A DNA stretch of 40,000 bases, taken from positions 94,871 to 134,870 of the forward strand of contig NZ_BCTM01000015.1 in the NCBI RefSeq assembly GCF_001571285.1. The letters are read 5' to 3'. How positions within the stretch are numbered: position 1 is the first letter of the stretch; each line of letters starts with the position of its first letter. Source of the stretch: Kluyvera cryocrescens NBRC 102467 (GTDB lineage Bacteria > Pseudomonadota > Gammaproteobacteria > Enterobacterales > Enterobacteriaceae). The position numbers were made by a program, and so were the translations under genes. The notes under the pieces were generated by a model that worked only from the letters and a program-made list of their open reading frames with translations, searched no databases and had not been told where the DNA came from. This document shows, piece after piece, positions 3,671 to 24,626 of the stretch.

Positions 3671-5965
3671 GTGTCAGAGTTGTTATCCCTCGTGCTCTTT
3701 CTGGCTTCTATTGCAATTTATGCATGGAAGGCGGGGCGTAATAAATGGTGGTTTGCTGCCACCCTAGCGGTACTGGGCCTGTTTGTGGTCCTTAATATTA
3801 CGCTGTATGCAAGTGACTATTTCACCGGCGATGGTATCAACGATGCGGTGCTCTACACCCTGACGAATAGCCTGACCGGCGCCGGGGTGGGCAAATACAT
3901 TCTCCCCGGTCTCGGAATTGTTGTGGCGCTGATTGCCGTCTTTGGCGGCCTAGGCTGGCTGCTGCGCCGCCGCCGTCATCATCCCCATCACTTTGGCTAT
4001 AGCCTGCTGGCGCTGATCCTGGCGGTCGGTTCGGTGGACGCCAGCCCGGCGTTTCGCCAGATTAGCGAGCTGGTAAAATCACAATCGCGTGATGGCGATC
4101 CTGACTTCTCGGCCTACTATAAAGAACCGTCGAAGACTATCCCGAATCCCAAACTAAACCTCGTTTATATCTATGGTGAAAGCCTTGAACGCACCTACTT
4201 TGACGAGCAGGCTTTCCCGAATCTGGCCCCTGAACTGGGCGCGCTAAAGAACGAAGGGCTGGATTTTAGTCACACCATGCAGCTACCGGGTACCGACTAC
4301 ACGATTGCCGGAATGGTCGCCTCTCAGTGTGGCATTCCGCTATTCGCGCCGTTTGAAGGCAATGCCTCCGCCTCGCTCTCAAGCTTTTTCCCACAGAATA
4401 TCTGCCTCGGCGATATTCTGAAGAACTCCGGCTACGAAAACTACTTCGTGCAAGGGGCTAACCTGCGCTTTGCCGGCAAAGACGTGTTCCTGAAATCGCA
4501 CGGTTTTGACTACCTGTACGGCGCCGAAGAGTTGAAAACCACCGTCGCCGACCCGTCCTATAAGAATGACTGGGGTTACTACGATGACACCGTGCTGGAT
4601 GAAGCCTGGAAAAAATTTGAGGCCCTCTCCCGCGAAGGCAAACGCTTCTCACTGTTTACCTTAACCGTAGACACTCACCATCCGGACGGTTTTATCTCGC
4701 GAACCTGTCACCGTAAACGCTATGACATCAACGGCAAAGCGAATCAGTCATTTAGCGCCGTGGCCTGTAGCCAGGAAAATATTGCGGAATTTATCAATAA
4801 GATAAAAGCGTCACCGTGGTTCAAAAACACCATTATCGTCGTTTCTTCCGATCACCTGGCGATGAAAAATACCGCATGGGATGAGCTGAACAAACAAGAC
4901 CGCAGCAATCTGTTCTTCGTCTTACGCGGTGACAAACCAGAAGAGCAGGATCTGTTGGCGGTGAAGCGTAACACCATGGATAACGGCGCCACGGTGCTGG
5001 ATATCCTCGGTGGCGACAACTTTATCGGCCTCGGACGCAGCAGCCTGTCCGGGCAGTCGCTTTCCGAAGTGTTCCTCAACATGAAAGAAAAAGTGTTGGC
5101 CTGGAAGCCCGACGTCATCCGTCTGTGGAATTTCCCGAAAGAGATGAAAACCTTCTCTATCGACACCCAGAAAAACATGATTGCCTTCTCCGGTAGCCAT
5201 TTCCGCCTGCCGTTGCTGCTGCGCGTTTCGGATAACCGCGTTGAACCCCTGCCGGAAAGTGAGTATTCCGCACCACTGCGCTACCAGTTGGCCGATTTTG
5301 CTCCGCGCGATAACTTCGTTTGGGTCGACCGCTGCTACAAAATGGCGCAACTGTGGTCGCCTGCGCTGTCGCTTTCCACCAACTGGTGCGTCTCGCAGGG
5401 CCAGCTCGGCGGCGAGCAGAAAGTGCAGCAGGTCGATAAAGCCATGTGGAACGGCAAAACCGAATTTAAAGACACGGTGATCGACATGGTGCGCTACAAG
5501 GGCAACGTCGACTCGCTGAAAATCGTCGATAACGATATTCGCTATAAAGCAGACAGCTTTATTTTCAACGTAGCCGGTGCACCTGAAGAGGTGAAAAGTT
5601 TTAGCGGCATTTCACGTCCGGAGTCCTGGGGACGGTGGTCCAACGCGCAGTTGGGTAAAGAGGTAAAGATTGAGTATCAGCATCCGCTGCCGAAGCGCTT
5701 CGATCTGGTGATCACCGCCAAAGCCTATGGCCCTAACGCTAATAAGCCGATCCCGGTACGCGTGGGTAAAAATGAACAGTTGCTCACGCTGAACAACGAC
5801 GTCACCACCACCACGCTGCACTTCGAGAACCCGGCAGATGCCAATACGCTGGTGATCGTGCCGCCGGATCCGCAGTCAACCAACGATGGTAATATTCTCG
5901 GGCACTCCCCGCGCCAGCTTGGGATTGGCATGGTGGAAATCAAAGTAGTTGCCTCTGAAGGCTAA
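3671..5965 (+). CDS. opgB: Phosphoglycerol transferase I (osmoregulated periplasmic glucan biosynthesis)
   Basis: 764 aa with a GTG start. It is collinear with E. coli OpgB/MdoB (MSELLS..., [54 protein letters not shown]). Confidence 0.95.
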
Positions 5966-6023: not shown

Positions 6024-6539
6024 ATGACCTTCTCCGTCCGTCCCACTACCCGCCACGATATCGCCGCGCTTCCTGCCATTGAGCATGCAGCCGGCCAGCG
6101 TTTTACGCAAATACCTGAGTTGGCCTGGCTTGCGGCAGGGCCCGTAATCTCCGTGGGTCAGCACCAGCAGGCCGCATCGGCGGGCATGAGCTGGGTTGTG
6201 CTGGCCGGCGATTGTCCGGTTGGCTTCCTACTGGCTGAAGCACAAGACGCATCGTTATTTATCGTTGAGATATCGCTACATAGGGCCTGGCAGGGGCAAG
6301 GCTTAGGCCGACGACTGATCGATTTTGTAGCCACGGTGGCGAAGGAGAGAGGCTTTACATCGCTAACGTTAACGACGTTTCGGCAGGTATCGTGGAATGC
6401 GCCATGGTACGCGCGGATGGGGTTTGAAATTCTGCCAGAGGCGGCATTAACCGCCGCACTCCGGCAGAAAAGACAGGAAGAAAGCGCGCATGGCCTCGCG
6501 TACGAATCACGCTGCGCCATGCGCCTGATGCTGGATTAA
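6024..6539 (+). CDS. GNAT-family N-acetyltransferase
   Basis: 171 aa with an acetyl-CoA binding-type motif (WQGQGLGRRLIDFV) in a typical GNAT layout. It sits where K-12 has lgoT-lgoR-lgoD. Confidence 0.75.
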   Translation: MTFSVRPTTRHDIAALPAIEHAAGQRFTQIPELAWLAAGPVISVGQHQQAASAGMSWVVLAGDCPVGFLLAEAQDASLFIVEISLHRAWQGQGLGRRLIDFVATVAKERGFTSLTLTTFRQVSWNAPWYARMGFEILPEAALTAALRQKRQEESAHGLAYESRCAMRLMLD

Positions 6540-6565
6540 CGCGCCCGACGGCGAGCGCGCACGTA

Positions 6566-20928: not shown

Positions 20929-21029
20929 ATACAGATTCAAAAAACACTTTTATTTAACATACAGATTCGCTAAAACGGTATCTGCGTGCGGTTTTTGTCG
21001 CCTGACTGTACTGGTTTTTTAATCTGTAT
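20929..21029. promoter_or_regulatory. ATACAGATT repeats in the yjiS/yjiR divergent region (candidate MocR operator)
   Basis: ATACAGATT occurs at 20929-20937 and 20959-20967 as direct repeats 30 bp apart. The inverted copy AATCTGTAT is at 21021-21029, and a partial ATACAG at 21044-21049. Confidence 0.4.
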
Positions 21030-21051
21030 GGCGATAACTGGGGATACAGCG

Positions 21052-22494
21052 ATGACGCGTTACCAACACCTGGCCAATCTGCTGGCCGAACGTATTGAAC
21101 AAGGGTTGTATCGCCACGGCGAAAAACTCCCCTCCGTACGCAGCCTGAGCCAGGAGCACGGCGTCAGCATCAGTACCGTACAGCAGGCCTATCAGACGCT
21201 GGAACAGCGCCAGCTGATCACCCCGCAGCCGCGATCCGGCTATTTCGTCGCGCCGCAGAAGGCCCAGCCGCCGGTGCCACCGATGTCGCGCCCGGTGCAG
21301 CGCCCGGTAGAAATCACCCAGTGGGATCAGGTGCTGAACATGCTGGATGCCCGTAACGATAAGTCGATTATTCCCTTCGGCGGCGGCTCACCGGACGTCA
21401 CCCAGCCAAGCCTGAAGCCGCTGTGGCGCGAGATGAGCCGCGTGATACAGCACAATATCGTCGACGTGCTGAGCTACGACGAACTGGCCGGTCGCCGCGA
21501 GCTTCGCGAACAGATCGCCCGCCTGATGCTCGACGGTGGATCGGTAGTCAACGCCGACGATCTGATCATCACCAGCGGCTGCCACAGCGCGCTGTCGCTG
21601 GCGCTGCTGTCGGTGTGCCAGCCCGGCGACATCATCGCCGTCGAATCCCCCACCTACTACGGCACCATGCAGCTATTGCGCGGGCTGGGGTTGAAAGCCA
21701 TTGAGATCCCCACCGATCCCAACACGGGGATCAGCGTCGAAGCGCTGGAAATGGCGTTAGATCAGTGGCCGATCAAAGGGGTGATCCTCGTTCCCAACTG
21801 CAACAACCCGCAGGGCTTTATCATGCCAGACGCCCGCAAGCGCGCGGTGCTGAATCTCGCCCAGCGCTACGATATCGTCATTTTTGAAGATGATATCTAC
21901 GGTGAGCTGGCAACCGAATATCCGCGCCCGCGCACCATTCACTCATGGGATATCGACGGCCGGGTGATGCTCTGCAGTTCGTTTACCAAAACTATTGCTC
22001 CCGGGCTGCGCATCGGCTGGATAGCCCCTGGCCGCTACTACGACAAGCTGCTGCAGATGAAATACGCCGCCAACGGCACCAACGTCCCGTCAACGCAGCT
22101 TGCCGCCTCCAACTTTATTCGTGAAGGCCACTACCACCGCCACGTCCGTCGGATGCGGCAGATCTACCAGCGCAACATGGAGATCTACACCTGTTGGCTG
22201 CGCGAGTTTTTCCCCTGCGGGATCTGCGTCACGCGCCCGCTGAGCGGCTATATGCTGTGGGTTGAGCTGCCCGAGCAGGTAGATATGGTGTGCGTCGCCC
22301 AGCAGCTGTGTCGAATGAAGATCCAGGTGGCACCGGGATCGCTGTTTTCTGCGTCGGGAAAATACCGCAACTGCCTGCGGATCAACTGCGCGCTGCCGCC
22401 AATCGACAAGCATCGCGAGGTGATGGTACAGCTGGGGGAGGCGGTGAAGGTGGCGATGGCGTGGGATGAATCCACCGCCCACCTGAAACGTTAA
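21052..22494 (+). CDS. yjiR: MocR/GabR-type regulator (GntR wHTH fused to a fold-type I aminotransferase-like domain)
   Basis: From ATG 21052 the product is 480 aa. The N-terminal wHTH is LPSVRSLSQEHGVSISTVQQAYQTLE and the PLP-lysine context is SFTKTIAPGLRIGW. It pairs with yjiS as in E. coli. Confidence 0.85.
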   Translation: MTRYQHLANLLAERIEQGLYRHGEKLPSVRSLSQEHGVSISTVQQAYQTLEQRQLITPQPRSGYFVAPQKAQPPVPPMSRPVQRPVEITQWDQVLNMLDARNDKSIIPFGGGSPDVTQPSLKPLWREMSRVIQHNIVDVLSYDELAGRRELREQIARLMLDGGSVVNADDLIITSGCHSALSLALLSVCQPGDIIAVESPTYYGTMQLLRGLGLKAIEIPTDPNTGISVEALEMALDQWPIKGVILVPNCNNPQGFIMPDARKRAVLNLAQRYDIVIFEDDIYGELATEYPRPRTIHSWDIDGRVMLCSSFTKTIAPGLRIGWIAPGRYYDKLLQMKYAANGTNVPSTQLAASNFIREGHYHRHVRRMRQIYQRNMEIYTCWLREFFPCGICVTRPLSGYMLWVELPEQVDMVCVAQQLCRMKIQVAPGSLFSASGKYRNCLRINCALPPIDKHREVMVQLGEAVKVAMAWDESTAHLKR

Positions 22495-23438
22495 GAAGCG
22501 GCGCTAACCGCTGATTCAGCGCTATTCGCCGCATCCTGTGGCCGGGAAACCGTGCGGCTTTTGCTGCCGTCGACGCCTACCGCAATCTCCCCTTCGACCG
22601 TCACCCGGCGCACGACGCGCGGCTGGGTGTCATAGTCGTTCACCGCATAGTGCTGGGTGCTGCGGTTGTCCCAAATCACCACATCGTCCTGCTGCCACTG
22701 CCAGCGCACGGTGTTATCGAGGCGGATAATACGGTTTTGCAACAGCTCGAACAGCTGTGCAGACTCACGCGAGCTAAAGCCCACCAGCCGTTTCACAAAG
22801 TGCCCCAGTAGCAGCGCACGTTCGCCGCTAACCGGGTGGACGTGCACCACCGGGTGTTCGGCTTCCCACAGCGCGGAGACGAAAACTTTCTGATGGTGCG
22901 CCAGGCGGTGCGTTTCCACTACCGTGCGCTCGGCGCCATAGTCATAGTCGTTGCTGTGCACCGCGCGCAGGGTATCGACGAAGCGTTTTAAGGTCTCCGG
23001 CAGCTGTTCATAGGCGCGGGCGGTGTTGGCCCACACGGTATCGCCGCCGTATTCCGGGATGGTGACGCCGCGCAGAATAGAAATTTTCGGGAAGGCGTCA
23101 ACGAAGGTGACGTCGGTATGCCAGGAGTCGGCGCGGCCACCGCCTTTCGAGGCATCAAGCTCAAACAGTTTGGTGCCTTCCGGGGACGGTACCGTCGGGT
23201 GAGGCACAATCTTGCCAAACCGCGCGCCAAAAGCCTGGTGTTCGGCATCGGTGAGGTGGCCCTGCTGGCGGAAGAACAGCACCTTATATTTGACCAGCGC
23301 CGCCTCCACCTGGGCAAACGTCTCGGCATCCAGATCAGCGGAAAGACGAATGTCGCGGATCTCCGCGCCGATGTTACCCGCCACGCGGCGTAAATTTAAT
23401 AAAGGAAAATCGGTATCAGCAGTCTTCACAGCAGTCAT
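22491..23438 (-). CDS. TauD/TfdA-family Fe(II)/2-oxoglutarate dioxygenase
   Basis: 315 aa with the HxD iron motif WHTDVTF, a distal His region (EHPVVHVHP) and WDNRSTQH. Its stop shares TTAA with the yjiR stop. Confidence 0.85.
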   Translation of the reverse strand: MTAVKTADTDFPLLNLRRVAGNIGAEIRDIRLSADLDAETFAQVEAALVKYKVLFFRQQGHLTDAEHQAFGARFGKIVPHPTVPSPEGTKLFELDASKGGGRADSWHTDVTFVDAFPKISILRGVTIPEYGGDTVWANTARAYEQLPETLKRFVDTLRAVHSNDYDYGAERTVVETHRLAHHQKVFVSALWEAEHPVVHVHPVSGERALLLGHFVKRLVGFSSRESAQLFELLQNRIIRLDNTVRWQWQQDDVVIWDNRSTQHYAVNDYDTQPRVVRRVTVEGEIAVGVDGSKSRTVSRPQDAANSAESAVSAAS

Positions 23439-23541
23439 GATTGCGCCCCTTTAAATGGTCAGAAACCCGAATATAGAAATATTCCGCCGGGTGACAAAGT
23501 CGACTTTGTGATATTGATAGCTGTCAGGCGGGATAACCCAT

Positions 23542-23847
23542 TCCCCTAAGCCAATAAATTAGGGGAAACGCCGGGATTGGCTTCCCGGAGGGAACGCCCA
23601 ACCCGGTGGTCGCCCCGGATATCTCAATCTGAAATAAACGGCTAACGCTGCTCCCCTAAGCCAATAAATTAGGGGAAACGCCGGGATTGGGTTCCCGGAG
23701 GGACGCCCAACCTGGTGGTCGCCCCAGTTATCTCAATCTGAAATAAACGGCTAACGCCGTTCCCCTAAACCAATAAATTAGGGAAACGCCGGGATTGGGT
23801 TCCCGGAGGGACGCCCAACCCGGTGGTCGCCCCGGGTATCTCAATCT
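23542..23847. repeat. Three tandem ~110-bp direct repeats, each with internal hairpins
   Basis: Units start at 23542, 23652 and 23761 (periods 110 and 109 bp). The unit is tcccctaagccaataaattaggggaaacgccgggattgggttcccggagggacgcccaacccggtggtcgcccc...atctcaatctgaaataaacggctaacgc. Only a handful of substitutions or indels separate the copies. Confidence 0.9.
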
Positions 23848-23874
23848 ACAATGTGCGACAAAACCGGGCACTTC

Positions 23875-23890
23875 GCCTTATCCGGCCTAC
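23875..23890. repeat. REP half-site
   Basis: gccttatccggcctac is the canonical REP tail, but no partner arm is present. Confidence 0.35.
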
Positions 23891-23916
23891 CGTTTATCTT
23901 GCTGACAGGAGTCCTT

Positions 23917-24159
23917 ATGACCACGGAAATCACCCTCACCCCCGCCGAGCGCGAACGGCTACGCGACCAGCTTTCCGACTACTGCTCAGAGCATTTTGAG
24001 CTGGAGCTGGAACAATTCGACGCCGAGTTTTTTGTCGATTTCGTTATCGATAAACTGGGCCCGGCCTTTTACAACGCCGGGATCGAGGAGGCGATTCGCA
24101 CCCATTTAGCGTGGAGCGAACGCATTCAGGAAGAGATGGATGTGAAGAAAATTTTATGA
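23917..24159 (+). CDS. DUF2164-like small acidic protein
   Basis: ATG 23917 has an AGGAG SD at 23907-23911. The 80-aa product (MTTEITLTPAERERLRDQLSDYCSEHFELELEQFDAEFFVDFVIDKLGPAFYNAGIEE...) is strongly acidic. Its stop overlaps the next gene start (ATGA at 24156-24159). Confidence 0.7.
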   Translation: MTTEITLTPAERERLRDQLSDYCSEHFELELEQFDAEFFVDFVIDKLGPAFYNAGIEEAIRTHLAWSERIQEEMDVKKIL

Positions 24160-24626
24160 CTCAACACGCTGTAATTTATTCACTGCGCGAACACCCGCAG
24201 AAAATGGCAGCGGTTATCGCCTACTTCCAGCAGCAATGGGCATCGGAAGAATCGATGATGGTTTACGACGACGCGCTGCGCCGCACGCCGGGAGCGAAAA
24301 ACCCGCTGCCGCAGTGGTACTGGCTGCAGGACGGCGAGCGGATTATCGGCTGCGCGGGGCTAATTACGAACGATTTCATCAGCCGCGGCGAGCTCTACCC
24401 GTGGCTGTGTGCGCTCTATATCGACCCCGAGTATCGCCAGCAGGGATTGGCCCGCCGGCTGATTGACCATATCGCCCGGCGCACCCGTGAGCTTGGGTTT
24501 GACCAGCTGCATCTGTGCACCGATATCGAAGGGTTTTACGAGAAAGCGGGCTTCGTTTTCAACGGCCTGGGCTATCATCCGTGGGGCGAATCATCGCGGG
24601 TCTACACGCGAGAGTTAGGCATTTAA
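24156..24626 (+). CDS. GNAT-family N-acetyltransferase
   Basis: ATG 24156 gives 156 aa. The acetyl-CoA motif region is YRQQGLARRLIDHI. It is translationally coupled to the upstream DUF2164 gene. Confidence 0.8.
   Translation: MTQHAVIYSLREHPQKMAAVIAYFQQQWASEESMMVYDDALRRTPGAKNPLPQWYWLQDGERIIGCAGLITNDFISRGELYPWLCALYIDPEYRQQGLARRLIDHIARRTRELGFDQLHLCTDIEGFYEKAGFVFNGLGYHPWGESSRVYTRELGI

Follow-up and report, generated by a model that had tools for sequence, protein, structure and literature searches.

A tandem repeat array upstream of a DUF2164-GNAT gene pair in Kluyvera cryocrescens probably derives from a miniature transposable element with IS4-type ends

[quoted passage not shown] Correia/NEMIS, RUP, Nezha and ERIC belong here, all of them small, non-coding, multi-copy and intergenic, with inverted repeats, target duplications and a single hairpin fold. 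The IS4 subgroup of insertion sequences is recognised by the terminal signature -AATR--------WTW---- together with direct repeats of 10-13 bp (PMC2266710). Dispersed intergenic repeats can also form spacer-less arrays whose copy number varies between strains, as do the variable-number tandem repeats (VNTRs) of the MIRU type and BrickBuilt of Porphyromonas gingivalis (PMC3184786; PMC4596501), the latter a 23-nt minisatellite inside a MITE (PMC4596501). In type III toxin-antitoxin loci such as ToxIN, protein genes are preceded by tandem structured repeats that share their strand. We analysed a locus with this last outline in a 40,000-nt stretch of the genome of Kluyvera cryocrescens NBRC 102467 (contig NZ_BCTM01000015.1, positions 94,871 to 134,870; the window), in which three tandem repeats precede an overlapping pair of genes for a DUF2164 protein and a GNAT-type acetyltransferase. 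Our analysis indicates, with a probability of roughly 0.87, that a type II MITE of the IS4 subgroup, a piece of selfish DNA, was here amplified locally into a VNTR, and that the array is not an RNA partner of the DUF2164-GNAT genes.

The Tandem Repeats Finder program reported a single array in the window, at 23534-23847 (period 109, 2.9 copies, 92% matches, score 542), and no second repeat of comparable size. A profile hidden Markov model (HMM) built from dispersed copies matched the window at 23538-23641, 23644-23750 and 23753-23855 with E values of 1e-26 to 1e-29. Taken together, the two methods delimit three head-to-tail, spacer-less units on the plus strand at 23534-23863, which bears out the three near-identical tandem units described in the first-pass annotation of this DNA, a reading made from the letters and their open reading frames (ORFs). 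The aligned units have a mean column identity of 91%, and the chance expectation for the central 35-mer of the unit, taken from shuffles of the window, was 0.00. The phase of the array is set by the ends of the element itself, with TAAC at 23534, 23643 and 23752; the starts noted earlier (23542, 23652 and 23761) are in register with the array, 8 nt downstream of this phase.

The unit is dispersed well beyond this locus. We scanned 185,579 species-representative genomes for exact copies of a 21-mer from the core of the unit (GGGATTGGNTTCCCGGAGGGA) and matched 39 stretches of DNA, with hosts in Citrobacter, Atlantibacter, Kluyvera, Scandinavium, Buttiauxella and Superficieibacter; at least 14 of the sites lie in one Superficieibacter genome, and one match in a Nitrospirales contig looks like chance. 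Nearly all dispersed matches are single copies. Merging orthologous matches left 32 distinct sites, all but one or two of them intergenic, and at 27 of the 32 a gene 3' end borders the site on one side or both, usually no more than 15-80 bp away. The genes flanking the dispersed copies are unrelated to one another and to DUF2164-GNAT, and arrays are the exception, present at 2 of 32 or more sites. The earlier suggestion of a genus-specific MITE/REP-like repeat was therefore right as to a dispersed repeat of MITE/REP-like kind and wrong as to its confinement to one genus, as at least six enterobacterial genera carry it. Neither the array nor the family consensus matched any of 5,426 complete E. 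coli genomes (blastn, word size 11), and the element matched nothing among PLSDB plasmids and phages (BLASTN), which indicates that it is chromosomal and absent from E. coli.

Full-length copies have the anatomy of a transposable element. They are about 113 bp long, contain no transposase ORF, have TAACACCGTT...AACGGTGTTA as terminal inverted repeats and form one long hairpin over their whole length (z -4.9), in whose predicted structure the ends pair. We distinguish sub-families, of which A, the main one, has the 113-bp consensus TAACACCGTTCACTTAAGCCAATGAATGAGGGGAAACACCGGGATTGGGTTCCCGGAGGGACGCCAAACCCGGTGGTCGCCCCGGATATCTCGTTCTTAAACTAACGGTGTTA. At 17 of 19 anchored sub-family A sites the TAAC...GTTA ends are flanked, flush, by target duplications of 10-12 bp (L numbers designate the contigs compared). 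The duplication is perfect, 10/10, at L022 (GGCTGACGCC), L024 (TTCAAACGCC) and L033 (GCCAAAAGGG), matches at 9/10 at L013 and L027, and is 11 bp long at L015 and 12 bp at L036. Because the L024 duplication is non-palindromic, the duplications must be genuine direct repeats, distinct from any mirroring of the hairpin symmetry. When the element and one duplication are subtracted, what remains is typically a terminator made of an A-tract, a GC-rich hairpin and a T-tract, with the duplication centred on the loop; at L013 the reconstructed terminator target reads AAAAAACCTGCC-TTCT-GGCAGGTTTTTT. Sub-family B, from Superficieibacter sp. 1612_C1, has other arms (TCAGACCGCTGAC...CATCAACCTCA) around the same core, and its duplications of 19-24 bp comprise the entire terminator hairpin (L021, L028, L029, L034, L045). 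Their length tracks hairpin size and exceeds any value of the IS4 subgroup (normally 10-13 bp), a hint of structure-guided target cleavage.

The second array of the family lies in a Buttiauxella metagenome-assembled genome (L041:7223-7515), at a locus unrelated to that of the window, where it follows an 83-aa ORF that is Ala/Lys-rich and looks secreted. It is an independent three-unit array, with a different phase and a 91-bp unit that lacks the first ~21 nt, and the array as a whole is bracketed by one 10-bp target duplication, GGCTTATCGG. This single duplication around the whole array indicates that arrays arise after one insertion, by local duplication.

A candidate source of the transposase emerged from a metagenome scan with the 5' 18-mer of the element, which gave 28 matches. 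Eighteen of these start a different, longer element, 1400-1415 bp long where both ends are on the contig, one end of which is identical to the MITE end at 18/18 positions. The ends of this 1.40-kb IS are TAACACCGTTCACTTAAG / TAACACCGATCGGTTAAG, the other end being read as CTTAACCGATCGGTGTTA, and copies were located at L072:6836-8235 (minus strand), L058:50-1464, L081:751-2153 and L084:55-1468. In every readable case the IS sits in an A-tract/hairpin/T-tract terminator with a 10-bp duplication (L072, target AAAAAAACGCC-TTTC-GGCGGTTTTTT, duplication GCCTTTCGGC; L058, duplication CCCTTTAAGG). It encodes a 433-aa protein with the domains Nterm_IS4 (PF13006, 95 bits) and DDE_Tnp_1 (PF01609, 85.8 bits), which is 36% identical to E. 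coli InsG (E 7e-80) and has its closest named homologues among IS4-family transposases of Dickeya, Pectobacterium and Serratia (82-85%). Similarity between the IS and the 113-bp element is limited to the terminal ~20 bp, with unrelated interiors, and the element is thus a type II MITE (PMC10969869).

The ends place the family with the IS4 subgroup. Both ends of E. coli IS4 (TAATGCCGATCAGTTAAG, TAATGCCAGTCAGTTAAG) agree with the 5' end of the element at 14 of 20 positions, with the common pattern TAA..CC..TCA.TTAAG and an end-proximal hairpin. Against the subgroup signature (PMC2266710), the MITE end TAACACCGTTCACTTAAG reads AACA at positions 2-5, a match at 3 of 4, and TTA at positions 14-16, which fits WTW. 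Duplication lengths are similar too, at 10-12 bp here, 12 bp around IS4 in MG1655 and 10-13 bp in the subgroup. The resemblance stops there, in that the unit of ~113 bp is without a transposase gene and its interior is unrelated to that of the 1.4-kb IS. As the element is missing from E. coli, the IS4 of that species is not the partner.

The units in the window can be read against these ends. Unit 1 (23534-23642, plus strand) has a diverged 5' terminal repeat (TAACCCAT) and is missing the final 4 nt (GTTA) of the full element. Unit 2 (23643-23751, plus strand) starts with TAACGCTGCTCCCCTAAG, which matches the IS4-type end at 13/18 positions, and unit 3 (23752-23863, plus strand), starting with TAACGCCGTTCCCCTAAA, matches it at 15/18 and closes with a degenerate 3' terminal repeat (ACAATGTGCGACAAAA, 23848-23863). 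The window units have kept the 5' repeat (TAACGCCGTT) and the end-proximal hairpin; the 3' repeat is truncated, with the terminal GTTA missing at the unit junctions (AAACGGC/TAACGCC, the slash marking the junction). The end-proximal hairpin, tcccctaa-N9-ttagggga, lies at 23542-23566 in unit 1, at 23652-23676 in unit 2 and, one base short, at 23761-23784 in unit 3, all on the plus strand, and has the same layout as the hairpins inside the ends of IS4 and the related 1.4-kb IS. The ccggga-N6-tcccgg and ccgggattggg/cccaacccgg pairings that had been noted with it are likewise present. The second of these belongs to a longer core hairpin, GGGG..CCGGGATTGG..TCCC-GGA-GGGA..CCAACCCGG..CCCC, which RNAalifold places at 23562-23616 in unit 1, with equivalents at 23672-23725 and 23781-23833 in units 2 and 3 (plus strand). 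On the MITE reading, the hairpins in the array are the palindromic architecture of the element itself, an IS4-like end-proximal hairpin plus a long central hairpin.

The number of units at this locus varies between strains. We compared 20 versions of it, on contigs that encode the identical 80-aa DUF2164 or 156-aa GNAT protein, counting units with BLAST and the profile HMM. There is one unit in L008, L010, L086 and L087; two in L001, L003, L004, L007, L009 and L090; three in the window, L005 and L092; four in L089 and L091; ~3.6, with one internally deleted, in L006; and none in L002. The shortened unit of L006 (2770-2843) has lost the central ~43 nt between two CCGGG repeats (...AAACGCCGGG/TATCTC...) and illustrates the small deletions that go with changes in copy number. 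Three Logan short-read contigs with DUF2164-GNAT (L093-L095) stop within the last MITE unit, 100-110 bp upstream of DUF2164, which shows that short-read assemblies break at the repeat.

Comparison between species gives the array some depth in time. Over 8 kb, Kluyvera genomosp. 1 strain L2 (L046) shares 91% identity with the window; it has the same locus, with three units in the same phase, and insertion and first amplification are accordingly older than the split of the two species. Units at the Kluyvera site are 92-95% alike within a genome and ~87% alike when compared with those of the sister species, as expected from repeated unequal exchange. The version without units, L002, is a more distant relative (a sister species), 88-95% identical to the window and with an identical DUF2164 protein. 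Its TauD-DUF2164 spacer (L002:2100-2985) holds no MITE and instead has ~8 tandem units of repetitive extragenic palindromes (REPs) in bacterial interspersed mosaic elements (BIMEs), with a period of ~110 bp and GCCTTATCCGACCTAC alternating with GTAGGGCGGGCAAGCGCAGCGCC. Two unrelated repeat families have thus expanded at one site. The spacer is a REP-rich, generally repeat-permissive place and not a regulatory hotspot specific to DUF2164-GNAT.

We propose the following course of events. An IS4-type transposase supplied in trans would move the element by cut and paste, staggering its cuts in the target by about one helical turn. Before the split from Kluyvera genomosp. 1, a single copy would have entered the spacer, which contains a REP, between the TauD-like gene and DUF2164 and would then have been duplicated head to tail. 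Unequal recombination or replication slippage may since have expanded and contracted the array to 1-4 units, with an internal deletion between CCGGG repeats in one strain. Such an array parallels MIRU-type VNTRs and BrickBuilt in being a dispersed intergenic repeat in spacer-less, strain-variable arrays, and differs from BrickBuilt in that the whole MITE is the repeating unit.

Several observations weigh against this account. No target duplication is recognisable around the window array, whose 3' end has decayed, the last unit being degenerate there. The first head-to-tail junction (AAACGGC/TAACGCC) is not explained by recombination between target duplications. The filled site downstream of frmA was compared with a Citrobacter locus, where the terminator is too diverged to act as an empty site; the case for mobility rests on the target duplications, the terminal repeats and the dispersal. 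The candidate cognate transposase comes from metagenome contigs, and its closest named homologues lie in Dickeya, Pectobacterium and Serratia. Further, the central ~55 nt are far better conserved between sub-families than the arms, and wherever a sub-family A copy follows a single gene, the two point the same way (9:0, p = 0.004; 6:4 for sub-family B relative to the upstream gene; counts from the 32 sites in L011-L049 and the window, with genes from crude ORF calls). A purely selfish, neutrally decaying element predicts neither the core conservation nor the orientation bias of sub-family A.

These last features are what an exapted structural module would account for, and this alternative survives best, though we consider it unlikely. 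It holds that the unit is a former MITE whose core hairpin, in RNA or DNA, came under selection as a terminator extension or a stabiliser of mRNA 3' ends, as proposed for REP/BIME, and that the array is a variable-length leader tuning DUF2164-GNAT (or TauD). In its strand-specific form, which we hold to be just as doubtful, the core hairpin would be an RNA module that extends or replaces the terminator stem and stabilises the upstream mRNA, and the window trio a strain-variable leader setting DUF2164-GNAT expression. If true, this would explain the 9:0 bias, the tolerance of G.U pairs on the plus strand and the conservation of the core across genera despite divergence of the arms.

The structural evidence for such a module is mixed. 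RNAalifold, applied to 41 non-redundant copies, returned a 17-pair central hairpin with 98.4% of cells paired, composed of the ccgggattggg/cccaacccgg pairing with GGGG/CCCC on its outer and UCCC/GGGA on its inner side. Compensatory changes occur at two pairs, 46/83 (AU 19, GU 15, GC 6) and 47/82 (CG 35, GC 2, UA 1), and support for the hairpin exceeds both column-shuffle and slide controls. Of the two mutually exclusive pairings noted at the outset, covariation thus favours the central one; the competing ccggga-N6-tcccgg hairpin has no comparable covariation support in the 41 copies. Around 34 core nucleotides outside the search pattern are near-invariant across sub-families A, B (Superficieibacter) and C (Atlantibacter), the arms being about half identical. 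The copies were, however, chosen by the exact core 21-mer, within which the innermost helix falls, and this selection inflates the apparent conservation. Among matches selected by the terminal repeats instead there are five MITE copies, three with 1-3 changes in the core 21-mer and two, L071 (~4037-4160) and L078 (~6430-6549), with a different inner core between the same outer segments (TTAGGGGAA...GCCCCGTGTATCTC). Both of the latter have the same terminal repeats and still form one end-to-end hairpin, which suggests modular replacement of the MITE centre. It is chiefly a palindromic architecture, of the sort typical of MITEs, that has been conserved.

Evidence that the module acts as RNA from one strand is similarly divided. 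The plus strand of the array folds better than its shuffles (z -6.4, compared with -3.9 for the minus strand), and the 15 G.U pairs at 46/83 on the plus strand would be A.C mismatches on the other. As had been noted, the C-to-T change in copy 2 (23712) also leaves a G.U pair on the plus strand. Outside pair 46/83, however, G.U (7) and A.C (5) are balanced, and we do not rely on a strand call from this asymmetry because it depends on one alignment column. The covariation is equally compatible with a DNA hairpin and an RNA hairpin. The window site itself argues against the exapted module, as it is a divergent promoter region and not a gene 3' end, the array contains no promoter or terminator match, and the copy number is free to vary between strains and falls to zero in the sister species. 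A strong preference for terminator hairpins and a centre better conserved across sub-families than the ends both set the element apart from other type II MITEs. A MITE of the IS4 subgroup remains our preferred reading of the array.

It is improbable, more so than an exapted module, that the unit is instead a named enterobacterial repeat (ERIC/IRU, REP/BIME, RSA, Box C or RU-3) or a described small RNA. The size of ~110 bp, the palindromic fold and the intergenic location do resemble ERIC, and a genuine REP adjoins the array. The E. coli genomes searched carry all of these families, however, and absence of the unit from them excludes ERIC, REP, RSA, Box C and RU-3; plasmids and phages gave no match either. 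The duplication of 10-12 bp also differs from the TA of Correia and ERIC, which are another sequence family with another partner IS family. REPs are 20-40 bp long, carry a GTAG or CGTC tag and have neither terminal inverted repeats nor target duplications. In none of these respects does the 109-bp unit resemble a REP, although both are palindromic intergenic repeats able to cluster in tandem, as the BIME array at this very site in L002 illustrates. A check against Rfam, proposed with the original observation, matched no family at E <= 10 (23000-24400) or at the gathering score (whole window), apart from a chance miRNA match. Full-text literature searches with the core sequence, in both orientations and as DNA or RNA, found no paper containing it in the library searched, and keyword searches aimed at enterobacterial MITEs that target terminators, or at repeats of Kluyvera, turned up general reviews only. 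The family thus appears to be one for which no description was found in the literature or Rfam, of a kind, the type II MITE, that is already known.

Other identities suggested by single features were rejected. The TAAC...GTTA ends recall an integron attC site. Integron cassette insertion makes no 10-bp target duplication, and such duplications, together with a partner that has a DDE transposase, argue against this identity. The hairpins recall REPIN/RAYT and IS200/IS605-type elements, which bear GTAG or CGTC tags and do not duplicate their target; the element has target duplications. A SINE-like retroelement origin, suggested by the variable length of the duplications, is unnecessary given the IS4-type ends. 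The units abut directly with a period of 109 and no spacers, so the array is not a CRISPR array, as had been stated from the start. A riboswitch or tandem cis-regulatory RNA, also considered initially, finds no support in Rfam and fits poorly with flanking genes that are unrelated and an element that mostly lies behind the 3' ends of genes and not before them.

The least credible reading, and one we give almost no weight, is the type III toxin-antitoxin-like locus raised in the first-pass annotation, in which transcripts of the repeats would be cleaved to antitoxic RNAs, one unit long, against a downstream toxin as in ToxIN: the layout alone fits, with same-strand tandem structured repeats upstream of a two-gene operon, whereas the unit, three times longer than that of ToxIN, carries transposon ends, occurs at 32 or more unrelated sites without the DUF2164-GNAT operon, varies from 1 to 4 copies beside identical proteins and is missing from the sister species, no terminator separates repeats and genes, and downstream lie DUF2164 and a generic GNAT with no ToxN/AbiQ/CptN-type endoribonuclease and no PADLOC match. 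Occurrence at many unrelated intergenic sites and a copy number that varies with no link to the neighbouring genes are the very findings that the annotation had named as speaking against its proposal.

The surroundings of the array agree with the positions given earlier, between a TauD-family dioxygenase gene on the minus strand (22491-23438; ORF calls and Pfam) and the genes for DUF2164 (80 aa, PF09932, 23917-24159) and GNAT (156 aa, PF00583, 24156-24626) on the plus strand, which overlap via ATGA and are neighbours outside the element. No ORF spans the array, also as first noted; only ORFs of 36-58 aa overlap its 3' part. A REP (palindromic unit) half-site, CGCCTTATCCGGCCTAC, lies at 23874-23890 (plus strand) between the array and the DUF2164 start, in the final 70 bp before the ATG; it belongs to a repeat family separate from the array unit and had not been noted before. 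The sole promoter match in 23380-23980 is sigma-70-like and serves the TauD-like gene from outside the array (23470-23497, minus strand, TTGTCA-16-TATATT, 10/12 matches). No promoter-like site on the plus strand and no terminator was found in that interval, no promoter-like or terminator-like site within the array, and no terminator-like site between the array and DUF2164. GNAT matches generic acetyltransferase models alone, far under any equivalog cut-off, and DUF2164 has no match in NCBIfam; neither protein matched the PADLOC defence models or any toxin model. On the MITE reading, the array is not specifically tied to DUF2164-GNAT in function; at most, it makes a promoter or leader region longer, to an extent that varies.

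For the question posed the outcome is negative, as a mobile-element explanation takes the place of a candidate type III toxin-antitoxin system or tandem riboregulator. It also defines a MITE family and an IS4-type partner for annotation in six genera, where the unit would otherwise resurface as 'structured intergenic RNA'. The window locus offers a ready-made VNTR marker for Kluyvera strain typing, and the near-exclusive choice of terminator hairpins, with the 19-24 bp duplications of one sub-family, provides a natural data set for the study of how structure guides IS4-type transposases to their targets.

Beyond the TauD-family gene, and convergent with it, lies a gene for a MocR-type regulator (GntR helix-turn-helix/aminotransferase fold; 20986-22494, plus strand), and the two genes, whose 3' ends overlap by 4 bp, probably form a regulator-enzyme pair that has no relation to the repeat.

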